Assembly (NCBI GenBank): GCA_963850305.1
Contig: CAWKKR010000001.1
Span: 736,001 to 800,000 of the forward strand
Reading direction: 5' to 3'
Origin: an uncultured delta proteobacterium
Lineage (GTDB): Bacteria; Myxococcota_A; Polyangia; Polyangiales; Polyangiaceae
Length of the DNA stretch: 64,000 nt
Made by a program: the position numbers and the translations under genes. The notes below the pieces were generated by a model. The model was not told where the DNA came from and ran no database searches. It saw nothing but the letters and a program-made list of their open reading frames with translations. Shown one piece after another: positions 54,063 to 60,634 of the stretch (position 1 is the stretch's first letter; every line of letters starts with the position of its first letter).

Positions 54063-55248
54063 ATGAGCGAGCCCATCAGTGTCGATGCCCTTTCCGCCCT
54101 CGATGAACACCTGACCGAAGACGAGCGGATGGTCCGCGACACCGTGCGCCGCTCTGATCCGGGAGCGGTATTTGCCGCGCGCCGGCGACCTCTTCGAGAA
54201 AGAGGAGTTCCCGGACGACCTCATCCCGGAAATCGCCGCGATGGGTCTGCTCGGCGCGACGCTCAACGGCTACGGCTGCGCGGGAATGAGCTCCGTCCAG
54301 TACGGGCTCGTCCTGCAGGAGCTCGAGTACGGCGACAGCGGGCTCCGTAGCTTCGTCAGCGTCCAGGGGTCGCTCGCGATGTACGGCCGATCTGGGCGTA
54401 CGGGAGCGAGGAGCAAAAGCGGAAGTACCTGCCCGAGATGGCGACGGCGGAAACTCATCGGCTGCTTCGGCCTGACCGAGCCGGACAGCGGCTCGGACCC
54501 CGGCTCGATGAAGACGCGCGCGAGGCGCGACGGTGACGGCTGGGTGCTCTCGGGCACGAAGATGTGGATCACCAGCTCGCCCTTCGCGCACCTCGCGGTC
54601 GTCTGGGCGAAGGTCGACGACGGCGAGGCCGACTCCATCCAGGGCTTCATCGTCGAGCGCGGAGCTGAAGGGCTTCGAGACGCCGCGCATCCACGGCAAG
54701 ATGAGCCTCCGCGCCAGCGAGACCGGGGAGATCGTCCTCGACGAGTGCCGCGTGCCCGAGAACAATCGCGCTCCCCAACGTCCGTGGACTGAAGGGTCCG
54801 CTCGGGTGTCTGACGCAGGCCCGCTTCGGCATCGCCTGGGGCGCGATCGGCGCGGCCAAGGCGTGCTTCGACGCCACCGTCGACTACGCCCGCAAGCGCG
54901 TCCAGTTCGGCGAGCCCATCGCCTCGAAGCAGCTCATGCAGGAGCAGCTCGTCGACATGGGCTCGGAGATCATCAAGGGCGATCTCCTCGCGCTCCACTA
55001 CTCCCGCCTGAAGGACGAGAAAGGCATCAGTCCCGATGCAGGTCTCGCTCTGCAAGCGGAACAACGTCGGGCACGCCCTCGCCATCGCGCGCACCTGCCG
55101 CGGCATCCTCGGCGGCAACGGCATCCTCCTCGAGTACCCCGTAGTGCGGCACATGCTGAACCTCGAGAGCGTCTACACCTACGAAGGCACGCACGAGATC
55201 CACACGCTGGTGCTCGGCAAGGCGTTCACCGGCTACGACGCATTCTGA
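54063..55248 (+). CDS. gcdH: acyl-CoA dehydrogenase, glutaryl-CoA dehydrogenase-like (several frameshifts)
   Basis: [58 protein letters not shown]. Confidence 0.85.
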
Positions 55249-55393
55249 ATCCGCGCCTCGACCGAGCCTTCAGGCGCGCCCCGCAGGAACGGGCGCGGCA
55301 CAAGACGGTTCGCGGCGCTCCGTGCCGTGGACCGTCGCGTGGCACGGTGCCGCCGCGCCGGCGCGTCGCTGTCGACGCCCGTCTTCGCGCGGC

Positions 55394-56017
55394 TCAGGGA
55401 CAGCCCACCACGCCGGCGTTCAGCGAGGGGCAGAGCCCGGCGCACGGGGCGCGGCTCGTGCAGCAGTCCAGCGAGTTGAACTCCGTCGTTGCCGGCGCCG
55501 AGCCGACGGCGCACGCCGCGCACTGGAGCGGGATGATGCAGCTCTCCACGCAGACGACCATGCTCCAGCAGGCCGGGTCGGCCTTGCACGTCACGGTCTC
55601 CTGCTGACAGTGCTGCGTCGCGCACGCCGCGCACTGCGCCGAGACGATGCCACCCGTCGGGAAGACGATGGGAGCGACCCCGGCTTCTTCCAGAGGTGGC
55701 GTTGCAGCATCTCGTCCTGCCGATCCCGCGTCGGGGTTGCCGCCGAAGGAGGCTCCGCCGATTGGCTCCTGACCGCCGGCCCCCGCTCCGCTCTCGACGC
55801 CACCGAATCCAGCGCTCCCGCCGAATCCAGCGCTCCCGCCGGAGGCCGGCGCGCCCGCCCCGGCCCCGCCGCCGCCCGATGACCCGCCGAAGAGGTTCCC
55901 GGTCCCCGCCGAGCCGCACGCGAGCACCTGCACCGCGCCGAGTACGAGCACTGTTCCGCGAAGCCCCGCGCCTCGCCGCGCGCTCGCGCCGCGAAGGCTC
56001 GCTGCATCACGGCCCAT
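55394..56017 (-). CDS. Gly-rich lipoprotein with Cys-rich C-terminus
   Basis: VQVLACGS lipobox, CAAC..HC..C..C..C..C module. Confidence 0.7.
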   Translation of the reverse strand: MGRDAASLRGASARRGAGLRGTVLVLGAVQVLACGSAGTGNLFGGSSGGGGAGAGAPASGGSAGFGGSAGFGGVESGAGAGGQEPIGGASFGGNPDAGSAGRDAATPPLEEAGVAPIVFPTGGIVSAQCAACATQHCQQETVTCKADPACWSMVVCVESCIIPLQCAACAVGSAPATTEFNSLDCCTSRAPCAGLCPSLNAGVVGCP

Positions 56018-56106
56018 CGGCCAGGAGCCCCTTTGACCTGCGAAGAGCTGGAGCATACCGAAGCTGGCCGCGGCCAGTAACCAGAACGCTACTCGGTTTC
56101 CCCGGT

Positions 56107-56341
56107 GACGGCGGGGGGTTTTGTTCTTGGGGGGCGTCCCGCCCCCCGGGGCTTGCTTCGCAACCCCGCCCCCCGGTACTCGCTACGCTCGGCTCCGTGA
56201 ATCGGCTGGAGCAAGCGGGGGCAGAGACGGCGGGGGGTTTTGTCCTGGGGGGCGTCCCGCCCCCCGGGGCTTGCTTCGCAACCCCGCCCCCCGGTACTCG
56301 CTACGCTCGGCTCCGTGAATCGGCTGGAGCAAGCGGGGGCA
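56107..56341. repeat. two tandem ~119-bp REP-like palindromic repeats
   Basis: near-identical copies at 56107-56223 and 56226-56341; hairpins GGGGGGCG-TCC-CGCCCCCC and TTGC-TTC-GCAA. Confidence 0.9.
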
Positions 56342-56410
56342 CAAGTCGGCGGGGACCCGGACCTCGAGGCGTCTGTTTTCCGGACACCTGTCCGGAAGAC
56401 GAACACTCTG

Positions 56411-56504
56411 CGAACGATGATCGAACGATGATCGAACGATGATCGAACGATGATCGAACGATGATCGAACGATGATCGAACGATGATCGAACGATGATCG
56501 AACG
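56411..56504. repeat. perfect 11-bp tandem array (CGAACGATGAT) x8.5
   Basis: 8 full copies plus CGAACG, read directly. Confidence 0.95.
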
Positions 56505-56568
56505 GCACCGCGTTTGCAGCGCTCGGGCTCGGCGGTAACGCCTTTGATCGATACCCCCGAGGTCGGAG

Positions 56569-56826
56569 ATGGCGCAGGTCAGGAATAATCTGGTCGTTCA
56601 GGGTTTGTCCGGCATGCTCGGCAAGCAGCTGGTGCTGCGGACCCGCAAGAACGGGAAAACCTTCGTCTCCGCGGCCCCACGTCGCCGTGCGGACTACGTG
56701 CCGTCGGAAGCGCAGAAGAAGCAGCAGGCACGCTTTCGCGCCGCGGTCGCCTACGCGAAGGAAGCAAAGAACCGGCAGGAGTACCGGGCGGGTTTTGGCC
56801 GATTCTACCCGCCGATGTTCATTTGA
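56569..56826 (+). CDS. small basic uncharacterised protein, possibly C-terminally truncated
   Basis: MAQVRNNLVVQGLSGMLGKQLVLRTRKNGKTFVS..PSEAQKKQQARFRAAVAYAK; GAGG upstream of the ATG. Confidence 0.75.
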   Translation: MAQVRNNLVVQGLSGMLGKQLVLRTRKNGKTFVSAAPRRRADYVPSEAQKKQQARFRAAVAYAKEAKNRQEYRAGFGRFYPPMFI

Positions 56827-56852
56827 GTGAAACTGAGCGATGATCGATCATC

Positions 56853-58178
56853 GTGCCTGAGGAGCGCGCGCAAGTGATTTCGGTCGAGGAGCGGGCGGCG
56901 CTGATGGCGGCGCCGCGGCCCCGACGCGATCTGCCGCTCGCGGCATTGTCCGCGGAAGGTGCGCGTCGCCGGTTGCCGCTCGCCGACACGGTGCGGGAGA
57001 AGGATCGCCGCGCGCGCCCCACCTCCGCCGTTTGGGAGCTCACGCTGAAATGCGATCTCGCGTGCCGCCATTGCGGATCGCGCGCCGGACACGCGCGCAA
57101 CGACGAGCTGACCACGGCGGAGGCGCTCGACCTCGTTCGGCAGATGGCCGAGCTCGGCGTGCTCGAGGTCGCCGTCATCGGTGGCGAGGCGTATCTGCGC
57201 GACGACTGGACTGCGATCATAGCGGGGATCCGCAAGCACGGGATGCAGGCCACACTGGTGACCGGGGGCCGCGGGGTGACCCGTGAGCTCGCCGAGGCGG
57301 CCGCAGCCGCCGGCCTCCAGAGCGCGAGCGTGTCCATCGACGGCGCCGAAGCCACGCACGATCGGCTGCGCGGCGTGCGTAGGTCCCATGCGTTGGCGCT
57401 CGAGGCGCTCGGCCACTTCGGGCGAGCCGGCGTGGCGTTGTCCGTCAACACGCAGATCAACCGGCTGAGCCTCCCGGATCTCCCGGACATCCTCGATACA
57501 GTGATCGGGGCGGGGGCCCGGAGCTGGCAGTTCATGCTCACGGTCGCGATGGGGCGCGCCGCGGACGAACCGGACGTGCTGCTCCAGCCGTACGACCTGG
57601 CAGTGCTGTTCCCGATGCTCAGCAAGCTCAAGCAGCGAGCGGACGCGGCGGGTGTGCGCTTCTGGCCAGGCAACAACATCGGGTACTTCGGGCCGTACGA
57701 GTCGTTGCTTCGGGAAGGGACCCTCCGGGGGCACACGGCATCGTGCGGCGCGGGCCAGAGCGTTCTCGGGATCGAAGCCGACGGCACGCTGAAGGGTTGC
57801 CCGTCGCTCACCACGGATAGCTGGGCAGGCGGCAACATCCGCCAGCACTCGCTGCGGGACGTGTGGGAGCGCGCCGCCCCGCTCCGCTACACGCGAGATC
57901 GCACCGTCGACGATCTCTGGGGCTTCTGCCGCACCTGTTATTACGCGGACGAGTGCCGCGCCGGATGCACGTGGACAGGGGACGTGCTGTTCGGGCGCCC
58001 CGGGAATAATCCGTACTGTCACCACCGAGTGCTCGAGCTCGCAGGCCGGGGGCGACGGGAGCGACTCGTCCAGGTGAGTGCCGCGCCAGGGCGTCCGTTC
58101 GACAACGCGCGCTTCGAGATCGTCGAAGAAGATTTGCCTTCGAGAGCAGTGAGCTCGAACGAGGAGACGCATTCATGA
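56853..58178 (+). CDS. radical SAM/SPASM peptide maturase, splicease-like (PlpX/rSAM_nif11_3/GDL-associated clade)
   Basis: AVWELTLKCDLACRHCGSRAG; GNNIGYFGPYE; CGAG..LGIEADG..KGCPSL; CRTCYYADECRAGCTW; GNNPYCHHR. Confidence 0.9.
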   Translation: MPEERAQVISVEERAALMAAPRPRRDLPLAALSAEGARRRLPLADTVREKDRRARPTSAVWELTLKCDLACRHCGSRAGHARNDELTTAEALDLVRQMAELGVLEVAVIGGEAYLRDDWTAIIAGIRKHGMQATLVTGGRGVTRELAEAAAAAGLQSASVSIDGAEATHDRLRGVRRSHALALEALGHFGRAGVALSVNTQINRLSLPDLPDILDTVIGAGARSWQFMLTVAMGRAADEPDVLLQPYDLAVLFPMLSKLKQRADAAGVRFWPGNNIGYFGPYESLLREGTLRGHTASCGAGQSVLGIEADGTLKGCPSLTTDSWAGGNIRQHSLRDVWERAAPLRYTRDRTVDDLWGFCRTCYYADECRAGCTWTGDVLFGRPGNNPYCHHRVLELAGRGRRERLVQVSAAPGRPFDNARFEIVEEDLPSRAVSSNEETHS

Positions 58179-58708
58179 TTCTTGTGCCCTGTCCCGCCTG
58201 TCGCCGTCACGTGCGCCGCAGCGAGCCCGCGTGCCCTTTCTGCCACGCGACCCTCGGGTCCTCCACGAGCATTCCGGAACGCGTTCGTGCGCCGCGAAGG
58301 CGCAGCCGGGCCGCGCTCTATGCCCTCGCGGTCGCGAGCGCCGGGTCGACCGCGTGCGGTGGCGTCACCAGCGAAGCGAGCCAAGGTCGCCCGCAGCAGG
58401 GCGCCGGAGGCGCCGGGAGCGGCGGCGCACGCGGCGACGGGGGCAGCGTCGTCATGACAGGCGGCGCTCCGGGAACGGGCGGTGAGCCGCGCATCGTCGT
58501 GCAGCCGAGCACTGGTGGCACGACTTCATCCCCCGACGCCGGGAAGGACGCCGGCAGGGACGCGAACTGGTGCGACTACAACCAGTGCGGCATCTACAAC
58601 GGGCCGCCGCCTCCACGACGCGCGCCCGATGGTCGCGGAGGGTTCGTCTTCTACTTCGAGCGGCGCGACGAGGATTCCGACCTCGTGGAGGACGACGAGG
58701 CGGACTGA
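58175..58708 (+). CDS. putative rSAM substrate/partner: Zn-ribbon, lipobox-like segment, Gly linker, YNGPP motif
   Basis: ATGA overlap with the rSAM gene, GAGGAG RBS; CPACRRHV..CPFC; ALAVASAGSTAC; WCDYNQCGIYNGPPPP. Confidence 0.8.
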   Translation: MILVPCPACRRHVRRSEPACPFCHATLGSSTSIPERVRAPRRRSRAALYALAVASAGSTACGGVTSEASQGRPQQGAGGAGSGGARGDGGSVVMTGGAPGTGGEPRIVVQPSTGGTTSSPDAGKDAGRDANWCDYNQCGIYNGPPPPRRAPDGRGGFVFYFERRDEDSDLVEDDEAD

Positions 58709-58929
58709 GGTCCCCACACAGCGAAGAGGAAGAAAGGCCGGCGGGTCCGCCAGCCCCCTTCGCGTCCGTGTAGGCGAAAGACCCACGTGGCACGGGCGGA
58801 AAACATTCCGCTCCGGTTCGCATGCGGCTCGGGATGCCGGATGACGGCGCGCGGCAATCGGTGGGGCCGGCGTGGACCCCCGACAGACCACGCTTGCTTA
58901 TTGGCGGCCGCCTTAGGAAGAATGCGTCC

Positions 58930-60634
58930 GTGCTTCGAAAAGCCCTCTCTTTGGCCCTGGCCGTGCTGTCGGCGCTGGTGTTGTTCGGGGCGGTCGCGGC
59001 GGCCGCGCCGAGAGACAAGGCCGCGGAGAAGAAGATCAACGAGGCCATCAACTCGAACTTCCTGAACACGGACTTCGACGGCGCGGAGGGGCTGCTCCTC
59101 GGCACCATCCGCGCTTGCGAGGACAAGTGCAGCCCCCAGGTGCTCGGCAAGGCCTGGATGTACGTGGGCATCGTCCGCGGGACGGGCCGGAACGATATGG
59201 CCGGCGCGGCGGAGGCCTTCAAGTCGGCCTTCGCGTCGGACCCGAACGTCGCGCTCGATGGACAGAATCGCGACCGATCCCGTGAAGGCGCTGTTCGCCA
59301 AGCTTCAGGCCAGCAGCGCCGCGGCCACGCCGGCGGAACCCGCGGCCCCGAGCGCTGCGGCCTTCAAGTGCGCGCCCGCGGTGACAGAAGTGCAGACGCG
59401 ACGCGCCGTTCCGCTCGAGTGCGAGACGGACGCCGAGCTCAGCTCCGCCTTCCTTCACTACAAGACGTTCGAAGACAAGGGCTGGGACAAGGTGAAGATG
59501 GCGCAGAACGCCGGAGCCTGGCGCGGCACCATCCCCTGCGCCGCGACGCAGGACACCGGCACTCTGAAGTATTACGTGGAAGGGCTAGACGCGGATGGCA
59601 ACGTCTCTGCTCTCCTCGGGAGCAAGGAGAAGCCCAGCACGGCCGACATCGTCTCGGAGACGAGCGCGGATCCCCCCGCCTACCCGGACGAAGACCCGCC
59701 GAAGCGCTGCGACGTCATCGAAAACGCGGGTTCTTCGGAGTCTTCGCCGAGCGCCGCTTCCTCGTCCTCGGGCGGCACTTGCGGAGCCTGGGGCGAGCCT
59801 TGCGGGACCGACGGGTGCTGCGCGGAGGGACTCACCTGCAACTCCGGCACCTGTGAGAGCCACTGCGAGGCCGACTCCGACTGCAAGGACGGGCAGAAGT
59901 GCGACGACGGAAAGTGCGGGGGCGGGGGCGGCGCGGGCGGCGGAGGCGGCGCGGTCAAGAACCTCGTCGGCATCCACTTCGGGATGGATCTCGCGAGCAT
60001 CTCCAGCGACGGCGCCTGTCTAGCCGGGTCGCGCGCGGACCACATTGCCTGCTTCGTGAACGGGACGACCTACGAGGGCACGCCGAGCGCCGCCGCGCCG
60101 GGTCGCATCTCAGGCGGGCTCACCGTGGCCACCATCCCAATCCTCGCGTCGTACGAGCACCTCTTCGGCCACTTCGGCCTCGAAGCGCGGCTCGGGTTCG
60201 CGTTCAACGGCGGTCAAACGCCGACGGGCGGGTCCGCCTTCGTGCCCATCCACGCCGAGGTCCGCGCCAAGTACTGGCTCCTCGGCGATGCCGCCTACAC
60301 CAAGCCCGGCATCCGCCCCTGGGTGCACCTCGGCGGCGGCTTTGCCGAGTTCGACGCGACGGTGAAGACCGGCATAGTGGACTGCCCGAACCCGACTGAT
60401 CCGAAGGTGCAGGCCGCCTGCGTGAACGTCACCGACGTCAACCAGGTCAAGGGGAACCCGACGACCGCCAACGCGACGAAGCAACTCGGCCTGAGCTTCG
60501 TCACCTTTGGCGGCGGGGTCATGTACGCCGTCGCGAAGAACCACGGCCCGATGCTCAACATCGACCTGATAGTGCCGTTCCCGTCCTCGGGCTTCGTCGT
60601 GGAACCTACGCTCGGGTACGAGTACGGGTTCTAG
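58930..60634 (+). CDS. secreted protein with TPR-like N-terminus, Cys-rich module and C-terminal beta-barrel (frameshift ~59265)
   Basis: signal peptide; ORFs 58822-59856 and 59258-60634 join; ends with the OMP-type EPTLGYEYGF. Confidence 0.75.

Follow-up and report, generated by a model that had tools for sequence, protein, structure and literature searches.

Spliceases remove all of a tyrosine except C1 and join that carbon to the preceding residue, as described in the available part of PMC9811515. Wherever a target motif is named in the accessible portions of the splicease papers it is XYG (PMC11414181, PMC11626197, PMC9811515, PMC10849128, PMC11002830, PMC10533398, PMC8326336, PMC9484694, PMC10373908, PMC5995677). 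The accessible portion of PMC10533398 counts 27 characterised and 939 predicted systems, and that of PMC10849128 describes a large survey in which systems were located by YG motif frequency. Given these 939 predictions and that means of detection, the myxobacterial YG family discussed below is probably included in Scott et al. 2022; systems lacking YG would be under-counted, since the survey counted YG motifs.

The type I spliceases PlpX and PcpX (TIGR04103) belong to the same clade as the enzyme considered here, and the sites of that family consist of X-Tyr-Gly followed by small residues and Pro. In contrast to PlpX and PcpX, the gene pair in the window (the whole stretch of 64,000 nt that was analysed) has no Nif11 leader, no Y gene and a lipoprotein-type partner; where PlpX and PcpX combine Tyr58/Gln228 with YG, the window enzyme has Ser58/Met228 and its partner YN. 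NCBIfam and Pfam scans of the partner and the scanned neighbours gave neither a Nif11-leader precursor nor a PlpY-like gene. Homology of the partner's leader to PlpY-like proteins was considered and rejected (hhalign to a Nostoc Y-like protein, probability 0.1%), as was homology to DUF1843 proteins. The binary spliceases RhaX/RhaA, RcsX and RasX, as presented in the accessible text of PMC11414181 and PMC11626197, comprise two genes and no Y protein, as here, and RhaX has the Tyr58/Gln228 of the myxobacterial consensus. However, the substrates of RhaX, RcsX and RasX are short released YG peptides, whereas the window partner is a 177-aa Zn-ribbon/lipobox protein without YG. The GDL maturases (TIGR03913), with their DUF1843 precursors, are the second-best match, but the window enzyme falls under their cut-off and has an unrelated precursor. 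GDL enzymes with His58 or Leu58, which accompany Tyr-Ala or Tyr-Met precursors, keep Gln228, unlike the window enzyme; myxobacteria are not alone in departing from YG, since GDL precursors include Tyr-Ala and Tyr-Met. The TIGR04133/TIGR04134 system also joins a SPASM enzyme with a lipoprotein, going by its family description, but the enzyme family is another one. Leader, lipobox, linker and gene order are common to the window pair and a myxobacterial Zn-ribbon lipoprotein/splicease family, for which no NCBIfam or Pfam model was found, and the YS/YA clades of this family are the nearest parallel to the window YN.

The radical SAM/SPASM frame and the 177-aa frame, with their ATGA overlap, are as the earlier note had claimed (Table 1), and the Zn-ribbon, the lipobox-like STAC, the Gly-rich linker and the four Tyr contexts without YG are confirmed in the partner: Tyr49 (LYA), Tyr135 (DYN), Tyr141 (IYN, codon at 58595) and Tyr160 (FYF). 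The true start of the enzyme is probably the GTG at 56874 rather than 56853, because GAGGAG lies 9 nt before it and DNA similarity to a paralog on another contig of the genome (C8) starts there. The absence of an adjacent protease or transporter, also claimed earlier, holds for the flanking ORFs scanned (three against NCBIfam, four against Pfam). The neighbouring genes at about 54170-55250 and 58930-60630 read as frameshift-split, through either local assembly indel errors or real lesions.

Table 1. Features of the splicease-like locus (positions in the window)
Feature	Position	Strand	Basis
Lineage-specific insertion of about 3.7 kb bearing the gene pair	55249..58930	.	flanking-gene spacing in congeners
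Splicease-clade radical SAM/SPASM enzyme, 441 aa	56853..58178	+	profile scores, identity, AF2 model, fold comparison
Ser58, opening strand beta1 (Tyr in the family), candidate +1 specificity position	57024..57026	+	conservation, model strand
Ala107 and Val136 (family Thr/Thr), putative polar inner face of strands beta2 and beta3	57171..57260	+	alignment
Arg177 (AGG), family Gly, possible damage	57381..57383	+	private change, invariant column
Met228 on strand beta6 (Gln in the family), candidate +1 specificity position	57534..57536	+	conservation, clade comparison
Partner/predicted substrate, 177 aa	58175..58708	+	translational coupling (ATGA overlap; GAGGAG 9 nt before the start)
Zn-ribbon-like leader C6-x2-C9-x2-H12-x7-C20-P-F-C23, putative metal binding	58190..58243	+	invariant in 32/32
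Basic n-region, Ala-rich h-region, lipobox-like STA-Cys61	58298..58357	+	Cys61 invariant
C133-D-Y135-N-Q-C138, second Tyr-Asn within a Cys pair	58571..58588	+	PWM score -18.9
I140-Y141-N142-G-P-P, predicted splice site	58592..58609	+	alignment with C8 partner 2; PWM 4.5

The radical SAM CxxxCxxC of the window enzyme is formed by C67, C71 and C74, and SPASM cysteines are present at 298, 316, 359, 362, 368, 372 and 389. Together with its placement among PlpX-type enzymes, these mark a splicease in the wide sense (PlpX-like clade). The earlier assignment to the splicease clade is borne out by the two best-matching families, TIGR04103 (nif11-class maturase 3) and TIGR03913 (GDL-associated maturase), by 52.7% identity (E 7e-148) to a Nostoc TIGR04103 member that itself scores 853 bits on TIGR04103, and by a tree, weak in its deep branches and with one long outgroup, that places the enzyme with the Nostoc and GDL enzymes; PlpX itself was compared by eye only. 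Membership of the equivalogs did not follow, as the scores of 490.6 bits on TIGR04103 (cut-off 725) and 464.7 bits on TIGR03913 (cut-off 591.75) lie below both cut-offs. The C8 paralog enzyme scores 522 bits on TIGR04103 (cut-off 725). The next-best NCBIfam family stands at 159 bits, about 300 bits lower, and with 159.3 bits on TIGR04133 (rSAM_w_lipo; cut-off 425) the enzyme is not a member there. Judged from its sequence, the window enzyme is a splicease by descent that lies outside both TIGR equivalogs. Its AF2 model (pLDDT 88.4) has the SPASM-maturase fold, closest to SkfB, PqqE, SuiB and anSME; no splicease structure was found in PDB searches, and ESM Atlas matches are Myxococcota clusters only (scores ≤0.79). 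Matches to the enzyme occur in 38 out of a set of 61 related genomes and, with a different query and threshold, in 200 of 401 genomes of the order.

C6, C9, H12, C20, P21, F22, C23 and C61 do not vary in any of the 32 leaders aligned, and R45/A46 hardly do. Cys61 follows an Ala-rich stretch in all 32, which upholds the description of the partner as lipoprotein-type; n-region, h-region and lipobox Cys, the sequence marks of a lipoprotein, are all present in the window partner. Ser at -3 of the lipobox is non-canonical with respect to the lipobox consensus. As the lipobox Cys is invariant and the genome has three Lgt genes above the Pfam cut-off, a membrane-anchored, lipidated product would be the natural reading. 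The partner itself matches no NCBIfam family and no Pfam family significantly. In the alignment, Tyr141 falls on the terminal Ile-Tyr-Gly site of the second partner at the C8 locus, which has the same aromatic/acidic tail, and the I140-Y141-N142 site ranks by PWM score above the 10th and below the 25th percentile of the family's 459 YG sites; both support the earlier suggestion that GIYNGPP occupies the position of a YG site. The invariant leader residues and this alignment argue that the features of the partner are not due to chance. The C133-Y135-C138 site is a poor match to the family site motif and, in the alignment with the C8 paralog, lies opposite a run of Asn. The XYG motif of spliceotide precursors, absent from the window partner, is present in 163 of 180 scorable family loci.

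The architecture of a Zn-ribbon leader, a lipobox Cys and X-Tyr-Gly-x-Pro repeats characterizes a large Myxococcota family, and a profile of the leader matched 4537 cluster representatives at E≤0.001. Partners were gathered with a leader-only profile, which contains no YG and so leaves the YG tally unbiased. The 194 distinct partners, from 191 loci (L197, from the unpublished genome G155, serving as a background row only), contain 459 YG sites and 64 other Tyr; the nearest loci are mostly from Myxococcota, class Polyangia. YN occurs three times, twice in the window partner and once in the linker of a YG-bearing protein. A further 151 leader-bearing proteins (154 ids less three: the window partner, a zinc-ribbon repeat protein that is unrelated and an entry that did not match) contain 322 YG and 2 YN, both YN in linkers. 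In motif context, YN is thus found in 1 of 194 locus partners, that of the window, and in 0 of the 151 further proteins. The earlier note had accepted that YN would be private decay or an error if all close homologs kept YG, and the tally shows YG kept throughout by the partners of close homologs, as well as by the C8 locus of the same genome. YN as a family-wide rule is therefore rejected. Some partners elsewhere also lack YG and carry, like the window partner, one site with Ile at -1, which is Ile-Tyr-Ser or Ile-Tyr-Ala. YS/YA is the non-Gly rule that recurs in the family, with YN as a single extreme case.

On the enzyme side, column 58 is Tyr in 145 of 172 other enzymes and Ser in none, with His or Leu in both clades that have YS/YA partners. 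Column 228 was Gln in 148 of 180 enzymes and Met in 5 of 180 prior to the targeted search, and is Met in 15/15 members of the two non-Gly clades. The enzymes of YS/YA partners thus have the rare Met228 in common with the window enzyme, together with a residue other than Tyr at 58. The change from Gln to Met (CAG to ATG) involves two base changes. For a blind test, 401 class and 383 family genomes were searched by a Met228-containing enzyme motif and 19 loci were fetched, the partners being read last. Among loci without Tyr58, 13 of 14 partners have YS or YA only (11 of 12 when two repeats of earlier loci are subtracted), and all five Tyr58/Met228 loci have YG partners, as does a sixth found later. 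The pooled set holds 214 distinct enzymes, of which 180 are scorable and 34 without a scorable partner were dropped; the Met228 class in it is enriched by design, residue 58 and partner state being unselected. Non-Tyr58 with Met228 gave 16 non-Gly loci and 1 Gly locus, Tyr58 with Gln228 gave 0 and 118, Tyr58 with any other residue 0 and 20, non-Tyr58 with Gln228 0 and 9, and non-Tyr58 with a residue other than Gln or Met 1 and 7; residue 58 was not covered in eight enzymes, all with Gly. Neither Tyr58 nor Gln228 is present at any of the 17 non-Gly-only loci. As a sole determinant Met228 is rejected, since 6/6 Tyr58/Met228 loci have YG partners, and so is the loss of Tyr58, since 9/9 scorable non-Tyr58/Gln228 loci have YG. 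Exceptions are apparent: locus L243 pairs a His58/Met228 enzyme with a YG partner, seven loci have neither Tyr58 nor Gln228 yet retain YG partners, and at L192 a YS partner adjoins a Tyr58/Gln228 enzyme.

The YS/YA loci form two separate clades. With the window enzyme excluded from the definition, 58 and 228 are the only columns changed in both; of the 217 conserved columns, 15 are changed in the window enzyme, 58 and 228 both among them (hypergeometric p 0.0045). The new substrate rule proposed by the earlier note is supported in this form, as enzyme-side convergence at 58 and 228. The YN site alone is a one-off, and its value is that it marks a third lineage in which the same two enzyme positions changed independently; with three independent pairs, the sign test gives p 0.25. 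A phylum-wide search for Met228 enzymes found them in 3 of 401 genomes, one new, and added no new non-Gly origin, and an order-wide search with a YS-clade enzyme gave no close member (best 70%).

Of the 11 residues that are the signature of its own genus clade (FastTree support 100; SH-aLRT 93 in a smaller tree), the window enzyme has 8; of the 34 and 9 that mark the two non-Gly clades it has only one each, Met228 both times. These residues argue against transfer from the YS/YA clades and for a separate lineage. Transfer or recombination as the source of Ser58 and Met228 was rejected, as no segment is clearly closer to a YS/YA clade and the signature residues are contrary. In 4 of 13 sliding windows, the best single YS/YA-clade member is closer than the nearest own-clade value, by 0.09 at most; in the AU test, grouping with one non-Gly clade is rejected (p 0.009) and grouping with the other is not (p 0.32).

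In radical SAM enzymes, the polar strand face lines the substrate cavity. In the AF2 model, strands beta1, beta2, beta3 and beta6 carry residues 58, 107, 136 and 228, respectively, all on the polar face by alternation. Four of the 15 conserved-column changes fall on 16 positions assigned to the inner face and none on 9 outer positions (p 0.017), this assignment being made by strand alternation and not by coordinates.

The pair in the window represents an additional copy, placed at a new locus; the ancestral enzyme and two YG partners are on C8. The C8 enzyme is Tyr58/Gln228, is 75.7% identical to the window enzyme and has two partners with three YG each; among the 194 partners the aromatic/acidic tail occurs only in C8 partner 2 and the window partner. 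In two congeners the only copy is found near a gene that also lies near the C8 copy. The genes that flank the insertion are 165-276 bp apart in three of five congeneric genomes searched, and 0.8 and 3.3 kb apart in the remaining two. Three leader-bearing ORFs are present in the genome, two of them on C8, and no further substrate candidate was found there. The window enzyme is 70-76% identical to congener enzymes, and the best 120 matches contain no ortholog above 77% identity and none with Ser58 or Met228. Unique changes number 50-62 in the window enzyme and 16-21 in the C8 enzyme when counted against the five closest outgroups, a rate two to four times faster (41 vs 20 and 38 vs 23 with two distant outgroups). 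Private changes number 29, against 6, 8 and 1 in three kin enzymes, and GC at four-fold sites is lower (0.86 vs 0.93). Pairwise dN/dS of the window enzyme is 0.20-0.23, from which branch values of about 0.25, and about 0.14 for C8, were derived.

The pair is proposed to be a two-gene splicease system that has departed from the Tyr-Gly rule. Usual tyramine excision under a relaxed +1 rule is predicted at Ile140-Tyr141-Asn142 and is judged an even prospect. By the anatomy of the family, the Zn-ribbon/helix leader would engage the enzyme, which would act in the cytoplasm on the unexported partner; lipidation at Cys61 would then lead to display as a membrane-anchored lipoprotein, for which a release protease or transporter would be unneeded. 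Clade membership suggests a net loss of tyramine (-C8H9NO, -135.07 Da) from Tyr141, and the product would be an Ile-derived alpha-keto-beta-amide joined to Asn142. Because only Tyr and the preceding residue are rearranged, according to the available part of PMC9811515, the +1 residue would be a requirement of fit and not a reactant; as it contributes the amide nitrogen only, replacement of Gly may call for room and not for new chemistry. Tyr58 and Gln228, for which the correlation is given above, may act as a ‘Gly gate’: His or Leu58 with Met228 would admit Ser or Ala, and Ser58 with Met228 (and Ala107, Val136) would admit Asn. According to Vagstad et al., the radical reportedly starts at Tyr C-alpha. 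YN may have arisen along the codon path Gly to Ser to Asn or by a 3-nt insertion, and the enzyme would meet Tyr-Asn-Gly-Pro-Pro in both cases. By analogy, the ketoamide could function as a surface-displayed protease-inhibitor warhead; a surface-anchored inhibitor appears the likeliest role, since spliceotides inhibit proteases (PMC11414181, PMC11626197, in the portions available). The wider proposal, that a two-residue switch at Tyr58 and Gln228 has repeatedly freed spliceases from Tyr-Gly, with the window copy as the most extreme case (Tyr-Asn splicing, perhaps at both YN, giving a membrane-anchored ketoamide) and with a switch transplantable to PlpX-type enzymes, is advanced tentatively, at somewhat less than even confidence.

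A decaying duplicate, in which selection is relaxed, the YG sites are lost and the enzyme is weak or dead, maybe after a YS/YA-adapted phase, is unlikely but carries appreciable weight. A single 3-nt insertion between the Tyr and Gly codons would suffice to create YN, YN is private to the window pair, an intact and redundant YG locus is present on C8, and the 3.7 kb insertion adjoins repeats. The 29 private changes, faster relative rate and lower four-fold GC would fit such a history, as would Gly177Arg, private at a site that is Gly in 180/180 and 120/120 homologs (Asp occurs in one distant GDL-type enzyme). Yet both frames are open and coupled and all Fe-S, Zn-ribbon and lipobox cysteines are retained; only two departures occur at columns at least 90% conserved, under the family median of three, and the branch dN/dS of about 0.25 also speaks against decay. 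Random loss is unlikely to change both 58 and 228, with Met via two base changes. Pure decay is not the best reading, because two YS/YA clades changed Tyr58 and Gln228, as the window enzyme did separately. The earlier note had also raised different chemistry, here a Tyr-centred radical leading to a crosslink (e.g. a thioether to Cys133/Cys138, -2 Da) or to backbone cleavage. The four changes assigned to the inner barrel, the two Tyr-Asn sites at a spacing of six residues, one of them flanked by a Cys pair, and the mildly unexpected second YN (Asn is 2.4% of core residues) would accord with it. However, the invariant splicease columns are kept in the window enzyme, Cys occurs beside YG sites in ordinary family members, and the YS/YA partners with Met228 enzymes have no Cys near the site; no evidence gives different chemistry preference over the usual reaction with relaxed specificity, and it is considered improbable.

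That the window enzyme is a second splicease of broadened specificity which serves the YG partners of C8 in trans, while its own partner is only an activator or relic, is very unlikely: the enzyme is translationally coupled to its own partner, which retains the I-Y-x-G-P-P site and the tail, and the C8 partners have their own enzyme. On the other side stand L243, with its His58/Met228 enzyme beside a YG partner, the activation of spliceases by leader helices independently of the core (PMC11414181, in the part available) and the three leader-bearing proteins of the genome, two of them on C8. An assembly error as the origin of YN is hardly credible. Two neighbouring genes seem frameshift-split, but YN requires two substitutions or an in-frame 3-nt insertion, and an error would leave unexplained the matching enzyme changes 1.1-1.6 kb away.

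With tyramine excision under a relaxed +1 rule as the preferred reading, natural covariation names two residues as candidate readers of the residue after Tyr, and one genome holds both a YG and a YN enzyme, with 76% identity, for a clean comparison. If true, it would explain the usual need for Gly, widen the choice of splice tags for protein labelling and place ketoamide groups on membrane-anchored proteins rather than released peptides; on the wider proposal, transplanting residues 58 and 228 would reprogram PlpX-type enzymes to non-Gly tags. The literature search, which did not reach key primary splicease papers, returned nothing on non-YG splicing or the myxobacterial lipoprotein family, and no specificity residue is named in the portions of the splicease literature covered. 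This silence on non-YG splicing is weak evidence of novelty, and Scott 2022 (Chem), Vagstad 2024 (Angew) and Morinaka 2018, with supplements, may already cover the myxobacterial type or non-YG sites.

Tyr, Thr, Gly and Gln occupy 58, 136, 177 and 228 in PlpX, PcpX and RhaX, as read by eye from the available part of the PMC11414181 supplement. In both of the GDL-type plasmid loci read (2/2), an enzyme with His58 or Leu58 adjoins precursors with Tyr-Ala or Tyr-Met, which may be taken as an independent hint for residue 58.

Loci at which the site tyrosine is followed by a residue other than glycine also occur elsewhere in the family. Two enzyme clades (L242-L247, L059, L137 and L176; L249-L253, L255 and L089) have partners with a single Ile-Tyr-Ser or Ile-Tyr-Ala site, and these are cleaner test cases than the window pair. 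At L109 a partner with a Tyr-Arg site accompanies an enzyme with Val58/Ala228 at the candidate +1 specificity positions. Likewise, among GDL-type enzymes (TIGR03913-like maturases with DUF1843 precursors), Tyr-Ala is present in two of three precursors on an Aureibacter plasmid (L263), next to a His58 enzyme, and Tyr-Met in one of three on an Azospirillum plasmid (L261), next to a Leu58 enzyme.

At L192, L030, L094 and L096 the family leader (the N-terminal Zn-ribbon) and site precede a folded C-terminal domain in one fusion protein; at L068, L069, L077 and L099-L101 they are joined to long Cys-rich repeats. The L192 fusion, whose C-terminal domain we take to be OmpA-like, has a Tyr-Ser site. 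Given these fusions, the modification may decorate full-size lipoproteins.

Features around the window pair and the ancestral YG locus
Feature	Location	Strand	Remark
Acyl-CoA-dehydrogenase-like gene (presumed)	window ~54170-55250		split over several frames
Lipoprotein-like ORF, 220 aa	window 55394-56056	-	within insertion
118-bp GC-rich repeat, two copies	window 56107-56354		just upstream of pair
11-bp tandem array, 8.5 copies	window 56411-56504		just upstream of pair
Basic ORF, 85 aa	window 56569-56826	+	
Next downstream gene	window ~58930-60630		split over several frames
Helix-turn-helix-like ORF (presumed)	L031:5413-5865 (source genome, contig C8)	-	after ancestral YG locus

Within the insertion, the lipoprotein-like ORF has no Pfam match; it contains an 18-bp repeat and a Gly linker, and its C-terminus is rich in Cys. 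The basic ORF has no family match in NCBIfam or Pfam; two paralogs lie on contigs C6 and C4, each with the 118-bp repeat nearby. Because similarity to these paralogs stops at about residue 73, the window copy may have been truncated at the insertion junction. Further copies bring the spread of the 118-bp repeat to at least seven contigs.

Congener counterparts of the two split genes match at 67-85%; the broken reading frames point to local assembly indels or lesions. An AT-rich spacer also follows the ancestral YG locus on C8.
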